64,000 nucleotides of DNA from Candidatus Saccharimonadota bacterium (GTDB taxonomy: Bacteria > Patescibacteriota > Saccharimonadia > Saccharimonadales > Saccharimonadaceae), in assembly GCA_017464135.1 (NCBI GenBank), contig JAFUEB010000004.1:207049-271048 (forward strand), written 5' to 3'. The notes below the pieces were generated by a model that made no database searches, was not told the origin of the DNA, and worked only from the letters and a program-made list of their open reading frames with translations. The position numbers were made by a program, and so were the translations under genes. How positions within the stretch are numbered: the stretch's first letter is position 1; each line of letters opens with the position of its first letter. Positions 16,423 through 64,000 of the stretch are shown here, in pieces.

Positions 16423-18303
16423 ATGAATGCGAATGAAATTAGACAAAGATTCTTAGATTTTCAAGTTAAAAAAGGTCACAAGGTAATTCAGCCAGCACCA
16501 CTCGTCCTAGAGAATGATCCGACGACACTTTTTACCGGTTCTGGCATGCAACCACTTTTGCCGTTTCTGCTAGGTGAACCACACCCAGAAGGAAAGCGCC
16601 TTACTGATTCGCAGCCATCCATGAGATTACAAGATATCGAGGATGTTGGCGATCCACGCCATACGACTGTTTTCGAAATGCTGGGTAACTGGTCACTCGG
16701 TGATTATTTTAAAGAAGAACAGATTCGCAATTTCTTTGAATTTTTGACGAAAGAAGTCGGACTCGATCCGAACAAAATCTATGTCACTTGTTTCATTGGC
16801 AACAATAAATATGGCATTCCAAAGGATACAGAAGCTGCAGAGATTTGGCAAAAGGTCTTTAAGGAAGCTGGCATTGAAGCAAAAATCGCCGAGATTGGCT
16901 CCGCTAAGACCGGTGATAAGCGTGGCATCAAGCCGGGTGAAAGAATTTTCTTCTATGATGACCACGAAAACTGGTGGAGTAGAGGTGGCGGTTGCGAAAC
17001 CACGCCAATTGGTGATCCGTGTGGCCCAGATTCTGAGGTATTCTATGATTTTGGTGAAGATAAACAAGACGAAACCAAGTATGGCTTAGCACATCCAGCC
17101 TCGGATGGCGCCAGGTTTATGGAAATCGGCAACCAGGTCTTTATGCAATATCGCCGGCTCGAAGATGGTTCGTTTAAAGAACTTGAGAAGAAGAATGTGG
17201 ACTTTGGTGGCGGGCTCGAACGTATCGCGGCCGCTGCGATTGGTAGTTTTGATGTGTTTAAGATTTCACTCATGAAGCCGATTATCGACAAACTCGAAGA
17301 GATTTCAGGCAAGAAATATGATAATAATACTGATGAAATGCGCGTAATTGCGGATCACATCCGGGGTGCGTATCTCTTGGCTGCGCAAGGCTTAGTACCT
17401 TCGAATAAGACGCAGGGCTACGCGATGAGGAGATTGGTACGCCGAGCGATCCTCCGGGCACTCGACCTCGGCATTTCGCAAAACTTCTTGTCCGAGATTA
17501 TCCCGATTGTTGCAGAGAACTATAAGGATTTGCCGGATTCGATTTTGACCCACCGCGAAGTGGCGCTTGATGTACTACTTAAGGAAGAGAAAGCTTTCCG
17601 CCAGACTTTGAATAAAGGTCTCAAAGAACTTGGCAAAATGACGAGGAATTCGAAGATTCTCGATGGACGCGATTTATTCAAACTGCAGGATACCTATGGC
17701 TTTCCACTCGAGCTTTCAATTGAAGAGTGTTACCGCGAGGGAATTGAGCTTTCCGAAAAGCATCGCGAAGAATTTGACGAGGCATTAAAAGAACAACGCG
17801 AACGCTCACAAACGGCATCAAAAGGCATGTTTAAGGGTGGCCTCGAGGACCATGGTGAACAAACCGTGAAATATCACACGGCTTGCCACTTATTACTCGC
17901 AGCGCTACAAGATTTAGTTGATAAGAGCATCTGCCAGAAGGGCTCCAACATTACCGCCGAACGCGTACGCTTCGACTTTAACCTTGATCATAAGATGACT
18001 GAAGAAGAGTTAAAGAAGGTCGAGGGCCAAGTGAACGAATGGATTAAAGCAGATCTTCCGGTGGTGTTTGATGAATATGAAAAAGCCTACGCGCGCGATA
18101 CCTTGAAGGCGCATGGCCAATTCTGGGATAAGTATCCGGATATACTTAAAGTCTATACGATTGGTGATTTTGACAATCCGATTTCCCGCGAGGTTTGCGG
18201 TGGTCCACACGTAGAACACACTGGCGTACTCGGACACTTCAAGATTGTTAAAGAAGAATCTTCGTCCGCCGGCGTAAGACGTATCAAGGCTGTGCTTGAA
18301 TAA
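16423..18303 (+). CDS. alaS: Alanine--tRNA ligase (short form lacking C-Ala domain)
   Basis: LFTGSGMQP, FEMLGNWS, PCGPDSE, DFGGGLER, DHIR, DTYGFP, editing HTACH...CGGPH. Confidence 0.96.
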   Translation: MNANEIRQRFLDFQVKKGHKVIQPAPLVLENDPTTLFTGSGMQPLLPFLLGEPHPEGKRLTDSQPSMRLQDIEDVGDPRHTTVFEMLGNWSLGDYFKEEQIRNFFEFLTKEVGLDPNKIYVTCFIGNNKYGIPKDTEAAEIWQKVFKEAGIEAKIAEIGSAKTGDKRGIKPGERIFFYDDHENWWSRGGGCETTPIGDPCGPDSEVFYDFGEDKQDETKYGLAHPASDGARFMEIGNQVFMQYRRLEDGSFKELEKKNVDFGGGLERIAAAAIGSFDVFKISLMKPIIDKLEEISGKKYDNNTDEMRVIADHIRGAYLLAAQGLVPSNKTQGYAMRRLVRRAILRALDLGISQNFLSEIIPIVAENYKDLPDSILTHREVALDVLLKEEKAFRQTLNKGLKELGKMTRNSKILDGRDLFKLQDTYGFPLELSIEECYREGIELSEKHREEFDEALKEQRERSQTASKGMFKGGLEDHGEQTVKYHTACHLLLAALQDLVDKSICQKGSNITAERVRFDFNLDHKMTEEELKKVEGQVNEWIKADLPVVFDEYEKAYARDTLKAHGQFWDKYPDILKVYTIGDFDNPISREVCGGPHVEHTGVLGHFKIVKEESSSAGVRRIKAVLE

Positions 18304-18332
18304 AAAAGTCCCCCTTCAAGGGGGATTTTTTT
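18302..18332. terminator. Bidirectional intrinsic terminator
   Basis: AAAAAGTCCCCCTT-c-AAGGGGGATTTTT between convergent alaS and ftsA-like genes. Confidence 0.8.
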
Positions 18333-19551
18333 AGTTCTGTAAGAGTTTTGCGAGCTTCGCTTTTAGTTTGTTTTCTGGTGGCGCGCCAGCTAAAGTGTCG
18401 GTGCCAACACGAAGCAGACCTAGAGCTGTTGCAAAGGAATGATCAAGCTCAAAATCTTTCGTAATGAAATTTGGAAGTTCAGCGATGTCAATGAGATGAA
18501 TGACTGGGCGGCGCGAGAACGGTAGATTCTCGAACCAGTCGGAGGTAGCCAAGGTTTCTTGAATCGTGGAGAGGCTAGCACCACCACCACAAAGCATCAC
18601 ATTGCGTGGCAAACTGCCAAAGCTTTCAAACTCTTCGAGTGCGACTTCAACGCCAGTCAGCCAGACGGAAATGTTTTTTGAAATCGCAGTTTCAATTTTG
18701 GCTTTTTCGCGGTCATCTAACTCGCCAGTGTCAAATTGCAGCTTCTTTTCTTCGGCTGTATCAAAATCACAACCTAAGGCTTCCGCAATTTGGTGCGTGA
18801 AGCTCCGGCCACCAATCGAGAACATCTTGGTACCTTCGACACCACCATCATCAACGACGGCAATATCGGTCGTACCACCACCAATATCCATCACGATGCC
18901 AGAGAAAGAAGAGTCCGGATCATCACCAAGACAGGCGCGGCAAACTGCAAACGGCTCCACCGCCACGGCGAGTAAATCGAGATTGAGTTCGGCGCAGACT
19001 TTTTCAATTGCAGCCACGTGGATGAGTGGCGCAAAAGCAGTGTAAATTAAAATGGCGACATCGGAACCCTTAAAACCAACCGGGTTCATCACTTTGTAGC
19101 CATCAATCGTAAGGGAAACAATCGCAGAATTAATTAGACGAACTTCAATATTATCATTGCCGGTTTCGAGAGTGACCATTTTCTTCGCGACTTCGCCGGA
19201 TTTAAGCTGAACTTTTTTAATAATGTCGTTCATCTCGGCTTCAGAAATCGGCTTGTTTGGATTCTTGCGCGTATAGTGAACGGTGGTAGTGTTGCCTTTG
19301 ACGAGTTCGCCAGCAATACCAACTACAACTTGGTCGGCCCGCTCGCCAACTTTATCTTCTACCTGAATAAGTGCCTGCTCGCAAGTAGATATGACGGCCG
19401 GAATATCAGCAATGGCGCCAGCGTGCATGTTGCCTTCTTTTTGTTTGGCTTTGCCAATACCGATGATTTCGAGATTACCTTTTTTACCAGGCTTTGCCAT
19501 GACGGCTTTTACAAACTCAGTACCAATATCTAACCCTAAGATTGTACTCAT
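18331..19551 (-). CDS. ftsA: FtsA-like actin-fold ATPase
   Basis: LGLDIGT, SHS2-type insert, DIGGGTTDIAV, IGGRSFT, LCGGGA; no ftsZ adjacent. Confidence 0.8.
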   Translation of the reverse strand: MSTILGLDIGTEFVKAVMAKPGKKGNLEIIGIGKAKQKEGNMHAGAIADIPAVISTCEQALIQVEDKVGERADQVVVGIAGELVKGNTTTVHYTRKNPNKPISEAEMNDIIKKVQLKSGEVAKKMVTLETGNDNIEVRLINSAIVSLTIDGYKVMNPVGFKGSDVAILIYTAFAPLIHVAAIEKVCAELNLDLLAVAVEPFAVCRACLGDDPDSSFSGIVMDIGGGTTDIAVVDDGGVEGTKMFSIGGRSFTHQIAEALGCDFDTAEEKKLQFDTGELDDREKAKIETAISKNISVWLTGVEVALEEFESFGSLPRNVMLCGGGASLSTIQETLATSDWFENLPFSRRPVIHLIDIAELPNFITKDFELDHSFATALGLLRVGTDTLAGAPPENKLKAKLAKLLQN

Positions 19552-25548: not shown

Positions 25549-28003
<2,455 letters not shown>

Positions 28004-33236: not shown

Positions 33237-33376
33237 TCAAAAAATAGATCCGGCCTCGAAGCCGGATTTATTTTTTTCTCTGAGTATGTTATAATTTGTT
33301 TTACGCAGAGCCCGTTCAATGCGGGCGAGTGTAGTTAACAAGAGCCCGTTCGCGTTAGCGCGGGCGAGCGTAGCGA

Positions 33377-47292: not shown

Positions 47293-47414
47293 CCAAAATT
47301 GGTTTCAACGGGGGTGATTATTGACTTTTTGTGTAATCTATGCTATAATAGACTTATGTGGGTTGTACCTTAAGTTTTAGTCCACAAAAATCTATTTTTA
47401 GGGGGAAAAATGGT

Positions 47415-47819
47415 ATGGATAGTGCAAAAGTTTATTCATTCAATCCGAGCATGACTGAATTCAAAGGCACCTACGCCTCAGATGCAAGTCTGGAGAAGAT
47501 TCTATCTAAATTGGACGCGTTCGCCTCCGAGGATTTCGAGTACTTTCGTGACTTGGCCGAGGAAGAGGAACTGGGAATGTGCGAGACCGACTCAATTGTT
47601 AGGTGCTTCGGCAACGACAATCGTTGGTATTACATCCACGCGCAGATTGACGACAATCAAGATGTCGCATTTGCAATCTACGATGAAGACGGCGTCGACA
47701 TTATTGTCTTCGTGCTTTCCAGAATGGCGGAAGATTTGAAAAAACTCGAAATTTTCGACGACATCGTCGAGGTTGAGCAGATTCTAAATCTCCTAATAGA
47801 GCCTTCTTGGATTGACTAA
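47415..47819 (+). CDS. Orphan acidic hypothetical protein (stand-alone cassette)
   Basis: TTGACT-17-TATAAT, AGGGGG SD, terminator ATCGCCCC/GGGGCGAT. Confidence 0.7.
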   Translation: MDSAKVYSFNPSMTEFKGTYASDASLEKILSKLDAFASEDFEYFRDLAEEEELGMCETDSIVRCFGNDNRWYYIHAQIDDNQDVAFAIYDEDGVDIIVFVLSRMAEDLKKLEIFDDIVEVEQILNLLIEPSWID

Positions 47820-48393: not shown

Positions 48394-48870
48394 ATGCCAC
48401 GTAAAACTACCAAATCTTTGGAGCGCAAAGTTTCTCCAGATCGTAAGTATCAATCCATCATGGTGCAAAGACTCATCAACAAGTCGATGCTTGATGGTAA
48501 AAAGCAAGTTGCTGAACGTGCAGTCTACTCTGCAATCGAAGGCGCTGCTAAAAAACTCAAATCTGAGAATCCAGTAGAAGTACTTGAAAAAGCCATTGCA
48601 AACGTTTCACCGGACTTTGAAGTTAAATCCCGCCGTGTCGGTGGTGCTAACTACCAAATTCCATTCCCAATTGCTGGCCACCGCCAAATGCATTTCGCAT
48701 TTACTTGGTTAGTACAAGCTGCACGCGCACGCTCTGGTATGCCATATGCAAAGCGTCTTGAAGCTGAAATCGTTGATGCATACAACGAGACCGGCGCTGC
48801 CTTCAAGAAGAAGGAAGATTGTCACCGCATGGCAGAAGCAAACCGCGCATTTGCACACTTTGCTCGTTAA
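48394..48870 (+). CDS. rpsG: 30S ribosomal protein S7
   Basis: DGKK, EVKSRRVGGANYQIP, HRMAEANRAFAH. Confidence 0.98.
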   Translation: MPRKTTKSLERKVSPDRKYQSIMVQRLINKSMLDGKKQVAERAVYSAIEGAAKKLKSENPVEVLEKAIANVSPDFEVKSRRVGGANYQIPFPIAGHRQMHFAFTWLVQAARARSGMPYAKRLEAEIVDAYNETGAAFKKKEDCHRMAEANRAFAHFAR

Positions 48871-48995
48871 TAAAAATAACAAAAAGTGCCTTTTCGGAGA
48901 CGCTTGGTCCAGCCCGTCGTTACGGGTGGACCGGCGCTCACTCGCTCCCCGTTGGTCGCGAAAGCTCCTTAAAGGCACTTTTTTGTTGTTTATTA
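48868..48995. repeat. Palindromic element copy 2 (intergenic, after rpsG)
   Basis: ~31-bp imperfect inverted arms (TAATAAAAATAACAAAAAGTGCCTTT..GGAG / CTCC..AAAGGCACTTTTTTGTTGTTTATTA) around a 65-nt core related to the obgE copy. Confidence 0.8.
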
Positions 48996-49038
48996 GCGAG
49001 TAACATGGTACAATAAGCGTAAGTATATAGGAGGTATA

Positions 49039-50043
49039 ATGGTAAAAGTAGCAATTAATGGTTTTGGTAGAATTGGTCGGAATGCGTTCAAGATTTTGCA
49101 AGGACGGAAAGATGCTGAGGTGGTAGCAATTAACGACATTACTGATGCCGCAACCTTAGCTCACCTTCTTAAATATGATTCGTCTTACGGAACTTATGAC
49201 CAAGAAGTATCTTCCAACGAACATGCAATTATTGTCGACGGCAAAGAAATCCCGGTTTATGCCGAAAAAGATCCACACAATTTACCGTGGGCAAATCTCG
49301 GCGTGGATGTTGTGATTGAATCAACTGGTTTCTTCACAAAGCCAGAAGATGCCAAGGCACACATTGATGCCGGTGCGAAGCGCGTGGTAATTTCGGCGCC
49401 AGCCAAGGGCGAAGGTGCTAAGACCATCGTGCTCGGTGTGAACGAAGAAGCCGTCACGCCAGATGATTTAATCCTTTCGAATGCATCTTGTACGACTAAC
49501 TGTATCGCGCCAATCATGAAGGTACTTGAAGACGAATTTGGTATCGAGAAAGCGATGATGACCACCGTGCACTCCTACACTGGTTCACAGCGCATTCTTG
49601 ATGCTCCAGCTAAGGATCTTCGCGAAGCACGTTCTGCAGCGGAGAACATCGTGCCAACCACAACCGGTGCATCAAAGGCGGCCGCACTTACGATTCCGAG
49701 TCTGCAAGGTAAATTCAATGGGCTTTCTGTCCGAGTCCCGACTCCAGTAGTTTCACTTTCGGATATTACTGCTGTAATTAAGCGCAACACAACCAAAGAA
49801 GAGCTTGTCGCCTTCTTCAAGAAGGTTGCCGACGAACAATATTACCAAGGTATCATTGGTGTGACCGAAGAAGAACTCGTTTCATCCGATTTTATCGGTG
49901 ATCCACGTTCCTGTATCGTTGATTTACCACTCATTGATGTGGTTGGTGGCAATATGATTAAGGTCGTCGCATGGTACGACAACGAGTGGGGCTATTCAAA
50001 TCGTCTCGTTGAGCTCACAGTTGATTTCGGTGGGGAGAATTAA
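49039..50043 (+). CDS. gap: Glyceraldehyde-3-phosphate dehydrogenase
   Basis: INGFGRIGR, SNASCTTNC, WYDNEWGYS. Confidence 0.98.
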   Translation: MVKVAINGFGRIGRNAFKILQGRKDAEVVAINDITDAATLAHLLKYDSSYGTYDQEVSSNEHAIIVDGKEIPVYAEKDPHNLPWANLGVDVVIESTGFFTKPEDAKAHIDAGAKRVVISAPAKGEGAKTIVLGVNEEAVTPDDLILSNASCTTNCIAPIMKVLEDEFGIEKAMMTTVHSYTGSQRILDAPAKDLREARSAAENIVPTTTGASKAAALTIPSLQGKFNGLSVRVPTPVVSLSDITAVIKRNTTKEELVAFFKKVADEQYYQGIIGVTEEELVSSDFIGDPRSCIVDLPLIDVVGGNMIKVVAWYDNEWGYSNRLVELTVDFGGEN

Positions 50044-63303: not shown

Positions 63304-64000
63304 AGACACTCCTTATTATTAGTGTCTTCATTTTATAACATTGACATTGCAAGCTCTTAAGTGAGCTTTTACATTGACAATGGATCTACCTAGCTTAGTC
63401 TCCATATATGTATATATTACTAATAGTTCGTAATTGGTTTCGTTGCCATGGCTTTAATATATGAAATCTTGCAGTTCAGGGTTAAGTTTACTTTCGACCA
63501 GATCGAAGTCCGGCCGCCATGTTGGATTCACAATAACGTATTCAACTACCCCACAGAGAGGTTCGTAGAGATTTAGATACCGCGCACCATAGATAAAAAA
63601 GAATGCCTTAATGGCATTATTTTTTATCTATAATTTCGCCAGAGTAGACGAGAACGTAGTTCGTCCTTTCAAGGAGATGAGCAAAAAAGAAAAGTTTGCT
63701 TTTCTTTTTCCGAGTGACACAGAAAGGAGAGCGAGCGTAGCGAGCGATGTCTAGTCAGGCGCACCAAAATTAACTGGAATCTAAAAACCATAGCATAGCC
63801 ACTGATCCATGCTTCTCCACTGACTTTTGCATTGTCGAAGACCTATGTTTATTATCCTAGAATTATTTAGGCATTGGCAATACTTCATAGTTGCCGATAT
63901 ACCAAGTTTTCCATTTTCGCTTAGCAGGATAGTTTAATCTAATAGATTGGCCTGCACCGCCTTGATAGCCTACGACTACATCTGCTCCCACATCATTTCC

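Follow-up and report, generated by a model that had tools for sequence, protein, structure and literature searches.

Palindromic insertions with copy-specific stems in Candidatus Nanosyncoccus: a probable hairpin-loop-targeting element behind rpsG and inside obg

Behind rpsG, this Candidatus Nanosyncoccus genome carries a long hairpin whose GC-rich centre recurs elsewhere within arms of another sequence, and the question raised by the locus is what kind of unit keeps its middle and changes its ends. An earlier note on the window (the whole 64,000-nt stretch of DNA analysed here) had offered two answers: that the arms are made by inverted duplication of the target at insertion, or that structure alone is under selection. 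Our analyses lead to an account that retains parts of both. The focal feature is probably one copy of a palindromic insertion element, non-autonomous, GC-rich and made up of two hairpins, that enters the loops of existing hairpins and whose family does not extend, among the genomes searched, beyond Candidatus Nanosyncoccus.

An inverted-repeat search places the arms of the focal copy at 48881-48899 and 48965-48983 (19 nt, 89% complementary), enclosing exactly 65 nt. Folding lengthens the stem to 48861-49002 and gives a 142-nt near-perfect hairpin in the rpsG-gap interval, with a free energy of -67.5 kcal/mol and z = -8.2 against shuffles (Table 1). From outside inwards, the left arm consists of an outer part with the end of rpsG, an A-tract, a 5-bp GC stem and a semi-conserved inner arm (48890-48899); the rpsG stop codon (48868-48870), as the earlier note had stated, and also the last codons lie within the stem. 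The right arm continues from its inner arm through the 5-bp GC stem and a T-tract (48979-48984) to an outer part that mirrors the rpsG stop region. Between the arms, the core folds into a long hairpin, P2 (48901-48936, with an apical hairpin at 48913-48926), and a short one, P3 (48942-48961), with a conserved unpaired joiner between them and a conserved 3' tail after P3. It scores 77 bits against our covariance model R1, which was built on a hand-set structure, the first RNAalifold consensus having paired unrelated columns.

Table 1. Positions of the focal hairpin, the genes on either side and the sister copy, numbered from the first base of the window
Feature	Position	Strand	Basis
rpsG (ribosomal protein S7)	48394..48870	+	ORF list; exact protein beside Ribosomal_S7-annotated genes in strain contigs
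Left arm, focal copy	48861..48899	+	Folds, inverted repeat, conservation profile
GC-rich core (65 nt), focal copy	48900..48964	+	Fold, covariance model R1, covariation counts
Right arm, focal copy	48965..49002	+	Folds, inverted repeat; outer part absent in plain-terminator relatives
gap (glyceraldehyde-3-phosphate dehydrogenase), downstream gene	49039..50043	+	Pfam Gp_dh_N and Gp_dh_C
Sister copy in obg linker	27623..27741	+	Left arm 27623-27650, core 27651-27715, right arm 27716-27741

The arms also have the layout of an intrinsic terminator: the GC stem (48886-48890 with 48974-48978) is followed by T6 at 48979-48984, 3' of a gene, making the site a predicted terminator that a simple terminator scanner misses because the 'loop' exceeds its length range. 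Long hairpins with flanking A and T tracts are frequent within the window. Very long two-way terminator hairpins, with stems of 16-19 bp including the A and T tracts, are common, examples being found at 63589-63631, 33239-33276 and 18301-18333. As a separate observation on this neighbourhood, the gene called between trigger factor and rpsL (47358-47819) differs among strains (L333-L339), encoding 121-135 residues in five strain contigs and being uncalled in two.

Profile and covariance-model searches found seven copies of the element in the 669-kb genome. Four are located 3' of highly expressed genes (rpsG, rplL, nusG and tsf) and three lie in frame inside genes, namely obg, a methyltransferase gene and a membrane-protein gene. 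The recurrence of the 65-nt core in obg with arms unrelated to those of the focal copy, first pointed out in the earlier note, was borne out, as was the compensatory nature of the stem change between the two copies: the A-T pair 48911/48927 corresponds to G-C in obg. The obg copy scores 92.9 bits against R1. It lies in the linker that joins the GTPase domain to the C-terminal domain and is read in frame; the peptides encoded by it are low-complexity filler, and the linker is hypervariable. Its core is 100% identical to that of the rplL copy in this genome, and both already have long arms.

Outside this genome, the model found the element in 33 of 36 further genomes from the genus, at 1-32 copies per genome, and in none of 24 genomes representing one each of 24 other families of the order. 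An exact-pattern scan of 185,579 species genomes gave the same picture, every taxon-titled match being Nanosyncoccus or Saccharibacteria and a few further matches being 'bacterium' MAGs from gut and rumen bins. No published description of the element family was found in the literature. Across the genus sample, 105 of 133 copies (79%) lie within unbroken ORFs, the element being read through in frame inside genes. The orientation relative to the host gene is random: among the 105 in-ORF copies, the core runs in the same direction in 53 and in the opposite direction in 52. The obg gene itself has a second hot spot of insertion, at residues about 97-100 within the N-terminal fold of Obg (relatives L063, L065 and L066; L047, L051, L053, L054 and L064). 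Some species have full elements there and others 4-9 extra residues, mostly six; the latter alleles resemble decayed elements, and L047 keeps a visible core remnant.

The common part of the element is larger than its core. In an alignment of 56 copies, the information content falls to zero about 12-14 nt beyond the core on either side, the innermost 10-13 nt of each arm being semi-conserved in the family, and each copy self-pairs over a median of 26 nt. The conserved unit is thus about 85-90 nt, the 65-nt core and 10-13 nt of inner stem per side, and not 65. The claim that the arms have no sequence in common accordingly stands for their outer parts and fails for the innermost bases, and the related contrast with fixed terminal repeats is upheld, the outer arms having about 0 bits across the 56 copies and consisting of local DNA. 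Further copies did not alter this: arm sequence is held in common only among copies at orthologous sites.

The element comes and goes between close strains, and the origin of its arms can be read where filled and empty alleles are both available. The clearest case is the rplL spacer, where the strain contigs L352 (empty) and L354 (filled) differ by 1.4-1.7% over 2.7 kb of flanks. The empty allele is a plain terminator (L352:7973-7997) made of an A-tract, a 4-bp GC stem, a 5-nt loop, the returning stem and a T-tract. In the filled alleles (this genome, L350, L351, L355 and L354), the terminator stem seen in L352 is retained as the outer arms, and the loop bases are kept on one side of the element with an imperfect inverted copy on the other. 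Hence, the element lands in the apical loop of existing hairpins. In the L352/L354 pair, a 10-bp stem with A and T tracts was already present and merely 5-6 nt were newly mirrored; the duplication, known from this single filled/empty pair, is inverted and not direct. As the stem is found in the empty allele, most of the 'private arm' is a pre-existing hairpin and few bases are new, although L352 might in principle have lost the element by precise excision and so not show the ancestral state.

The focal spacer is filled in all 17 strain contigs, so that the comparison of filled and empty alleles proposed in the earlier note, informative at rplL where the arm is largely pre-existing target DNA, had no empty counterpart here. 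Plain terminators occupy this rpsG-gap spacer in several species of the genus, and the mirror of the rpsG stop region found in our right outer arm is missing from them, which indicates that the outermost right arm is derived. By analogy with rplL, and with these plain-terminator relatives in mind, we infer that the focal copy sits in the loop of the rpsG intrinsic terminator; its arms would then be the stem of that terminator, A and T tracts included, after outward growth had brought the right side to mirror the rpsG stop region. In the obg genes of G011 and G004, the conserved A-D-L codons form the end of one arm, and the other arm, on the left, is their mirror image; the nearest empty obg allele has just a weak quasi-palindrome at the A-D-L codon site. 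Filled coding sites are longer by a net 81-99 nt, close to the length of the conserved unit alone. Other searches for empty alleles returned filled ones only: for the obg copy, the sole close metagenome contig (L253) and nine of nine strain contigs are filled, and strain look-ups for the tsf-frr spacer and the membrane-protein copy gave filled, near-identical alleles. For the methyltransferase copy, we had taken the right arm to be ancestral but withdrew this, as a strain-level empty allele has a quite different loop and an old arm may itself be the source of the conserved motif there. Most copies are in genes, where long hairpins do not pre-exist and arm formation is seen only indirectly, which counts against our reading.

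How much of an arm has to be made anew separates our reading from the inverted duplication suggested at the outset, in which the whole arm on one side would be synthesised at insertion as an inverted copy of a 25-35-nt flank and no prior hairpin would be needed. Part of that proposal holds, since one arm does in part repeat pre-existing sequence in inverted form, at the rpsG stop region, the rplL loop and the obg A-D-L codons. At the rpsG end and the second obg site, moreover, one arm is ancestral and its mirror absent from the empty alleles, the copies with fully identical cores in obg and rplL are already long-armed, and better-scoring copies tend toward cleaner arms. As the whole story, however, we consider it unlikely: the sole near-isogenic pair had its outer stem beforehand, the gain at coding sites leaves little room beyond the conserved unit, and giant palindromes that have no core occur in the same spacer elsewhere. 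These last are AT-rich nested palindromes of about 190-225 nt (L369:2393-2609; L068, L086), which occupy the rpsG-gap spacer of other lineages and reach the rpsG stop codon; palindrome growth therefore does not need the element, and looks like a property of the genome and not of the element alone. In the same spacer of L078 (G002), an apparent focal left arm is fused directly to a T-run, with neither core nor right stem, which may be the footprint of a deletion.

Another family of elements, whose core is short at about 30-35 nt, uses the same sites and has private arms like those of the main family. We found it, on L359:449-1600 (methyltransferase), L353:7944-8067, L075 and L063, in the methyltransferase loop, the rplL terminator, the rpsG spacer of G027 and the second obg site in G004. 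In L353 it occupies the same rplL loop as the main family, and the loop bases are likewise mirrored. Among strains whose L27 is identical, the methyltransferase gene has three alleles: one filled, one empty, and one in which the same arms enclose the short-core family.

The stems of the core are maintained by paired change. Across 57 distinct copies, 14 of the 16 core pairs have changed on both sides, the covariation being 0.443, where shuffles give 0.145 and slid controls no more than 0.081; within P2, a 6-7-bp segment varies in almost every copy and retains its complementarity. The covariation expected from the earlier comparison of two copies is thus strong across the family. The same is seen between strains: the focal copy and L339 are set apart by compensatory double changes at two pairs, 48889 with 48975 in the arm and 48911 with 48927 in P2, and such double changes are also present between alleles of the methyltransferase and nusG-rplK copies. 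The idea that structure alone is under selection is partly supported by this, the arms and core stems changing in concert between strains. Mismatches in the core stems are asymmetric on the forward strand of the core, 26 being G.T and 4 A.C, which suggests that one of the two strands, in single-stranded form, is what matters. The copies are also less diverged than their surroundings. Positions 48879-48989 are identical between the focal copy and L334 (0 of 111 differ) while rpsG and gap differ by 8-12%; similarly, the obg element with its arms differs from L253 at 2 of 119 positions, both unpaired, against 10.6% for the gene, and the passage from a nearly invariant element to strongly diverged codons is abrupt, falling exactly at the outer arm ends (window 27601-27622, 27742). 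Such low divergence relative to the flanks is not predicted for neutral selfish DNA; the hairpin may be under constraint or, possibly, may have spread recently as one unit through a recombining population.

Covariation in P2 and P3, the excess of G.U-type over A.C mismatches on one strand, the conserved joiner and tail and the low divergence within alleles are what one would also expect of a functional structured RNA, whether a small RNA, a cis-regulator or a ribozyme, with a core selected for its fold and arms that form a closing helix and need only to pair. We nevertheless regard such a function as very unlikely. The copies are mostly in frame within ORFs and their orientation is random, either orientation is found at the same site in sister strains, presence varies between strains, and different cores replace one another at one site. 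At the gathering score, tRNAs alone passed in an Rfam search of the window, and relaxing the threshold to E up to 10 added just chance microRNA-like matches on the long stem; the element has no Rfam match at any threshold. The replacement is best seen at the focal site itself, which has two alleles: allele A with the focal core, forward (this genome, L336, L334, L339 and others), and allele B with a core of another subfamily, reversed (L333, L335, L337 and L338). The two have common outer arms, and L337 carries allele B though its rpsG differs from that of this genome at only 1 of 474 bases. These two alleles with different cores in opposite orientation, together with the large share of copies in ORFs and their even split between directions, argue for selfish DNA rather than sense RNA.

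The element can also invert in place between its arms. In the obg gene of strain L344, whose flanks differ from ours at 14 of 963 and 6 of 262 bases, a 100-nt segment consisting of the core and about 17 nt of each arm is reverse-complemented (99 of 100 identical), with the arm mismatch and the bulged base now on the opposite side; the gene is open (448 codons) with a different 40-residue linker, and both orientations leave obg in frame. At rplL, the L354 allele is the exact reverse complement of ours; the preserved asymmetry of the loop excludes an independent insertion. Altogether, strain comparison shows two of the seven loci (obg and rplL) flipped in sister strains, with breakpoints within the arms, the strain alleles coming from metagenome assemblies and the flips resting on assembled contigs, not reads. 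That these are programmed invertible switches, or invertons, with arms serving as recombination sites of an invertase and flips giving alternative linkers or terminator states, would agree with the flipped loci, their breakpoints and the open obg frame either way round but is highly improbable, as the arms differ at every locus and so provide no common recombinase site at the breakpoints, the peptides are filler, and no dedicated enzyme is required for short inverted repeats to invert, recombination or template switching being enough.

Overall, our verdict, held with somewhat more belief than doubt, is that the family is selfish palindromic DNA that targets hairpin loops, much in the manner of the Rickettsia palindromic elements. 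The active form would be one particular single strand folded as a hairpin. On entering a loop, it would leave unpaired target bases beside the hairpin, and these may be turned double-stranded by templated copying of the opposite flank, either through fold-back priming at insertion or through a later template-switch correction of the quasi-palindrome; the copying probably took place at one or other of these stages, and its outcome would be a perfect, copy-specific stem. Template-switch correction of quasi-palindromes is an established mutational route in E. coli (PMC7202029). The private arms are thus partly explained by the targeting of hairpin loops and templated mirroring, to which in-place inversion is added, and it is in this combination that the novelty lies.

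The enzyme that would move such an element did not emerge from our searches. A Y1/HUH domain (Y1_Tnp, PF01797, of RAYT) was found in none of five genomes, four of which have 24-32 copies, and control genomes were positive; with no RAYT in these five and no Rfam match, assignment to a known Rfam or REP family, which would have spoken against the earlier note, was not obtained. Reverse transcriptase was considered as the mobiliser and rejected as a correlate: it is encoded in 31 of 40 genomes of the genus and in none of G010, G011 and G012, which have 16-26 copies. Integrases of the rve type occur in some genomes and are absent from the high-copy G017 and G021. For the record, the 669-kb genome (G000) has two reverse-transcriptase genes (C3:66443-67084 and C2:123742-124287) and two rve integrase-type genes (C2:126057-126350 and C2:35192-35479). 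A bolder form of the selfish reading, to which we give little credence, dispenses with a classical transposase. The element would then be mobile DNA of a new kind. During replication, or once DNA has been taken up, its self-folding single strand would slip into a hairpin loop or quasi-palindrome and make its own closing stem by folding back and copying the target. It would invert freely and pass from one diverged lineage to another as a hairpin alone, with no flanking DNA, acting as a drive element that recodes the linkers of essential proteins. The spread might occur, for example, when a hairpin looped out in a recombination heteroduplex escapes correction and the flanking mismatches are restored.

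Saccharibacteria have some of the smallest genomes among free-replicating bacteria. Read as selfish DNA, the family implies that a genus with tiny genomes tolerates dozens of parasitic hairpins, also in essential genes such as obg. Loop targeting, templated palindrome-making and in-place inversion together give a concrete and testable account of copy-specific stems. If the mechanism holds, it would link mobile DNA with template-switch mutagenesis at quasi-palindromes and with protein recoding by intragenic inversion, and the copies could serve as natural strain-tracking markers in gut and rumen metagenomes.

Among known systems, IS1397 and ISKpn1 are autonomous IS3-family elements that insert in the loops of palindromic units of enterobacterial REP/BIME sequences, encode a transposase and make direct target duplications. 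The element described here is similar in entering the apical loop of a pre-existing extragenic hairpin and differs in being gene-less and, in one filled/empty pair, in having an inverted duplication. REPs are extragenic sequences of 20-40 nt, and REPs and REPINs are moved by RAYT (Y1 HUH) transposases. With these and IS200/IS605-type elements, our family has in common that the hairpin structure and not terminal repeats defines the element and, in its excess of G.T over A.C, a bias to a single strand; no Y1_Tnp was found in the five genomes, however, and we identified no conserved tetranucleotide head. Like MITEs, the copies are small, non-coding, numerous (seven here and up to 32 in relatives) and polymorphic for presence; unlike MITEs, they lack same-sequence terminal inverted repeats, having only the semi-conserved inner stem of 10-13 nt, and the target duplication is inverted rather than direct in the single pair L352/L354. 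The mobile GC clusters and hairpin elements of AT-rich mitochondrial genomes (PMC4478555), including the RHEs of sponges (PMC2800124), are organellar rather than bacterial but otherwise close in character: GC-rich hairpin repeats spread in a reduced, AT-richer genome, turn over rapidly, have no known enzyme and in part reside in genes (PMC4478555; PMC2800124). Intragenic invertons are segments within genes that are flanked by inverted repeats and occur in both orientations, recoding the protein, and are thought to be enzyme-mediated and adaptive (bioRxiv 10.1101/2023.03.11.532203). The obg and rplL loci, found in both orientations between strains with breakpoints in inverted repeats, resemble these, but the flips here are between strains, in filler sequence and within arms that differ at each locus. 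The nearest parallel is with the Rickettsia palindromic elements, which are described as small gene-less palindromic repeats of a reduced genome, with many in-frame insertions in unrelated housekeeping genes as well as intergenic copies and a peptide that is tolerated (PMC10969869). Our elements are alike in being small, gene-less palindromes that lie in frame and are read through, here in obg, the methyltransferase and the membrane protein and in most copies of the genus sample. The two are without sequence relation and belong to different phyla, and the Rickettsia copies have a full-length consensus that includes their ends, whereas here only the central 85-90 nt are common, each site has a closing stem of its own, the unit can turn round where it sits, and a small set of sites is occupied repeatedly by different cores.
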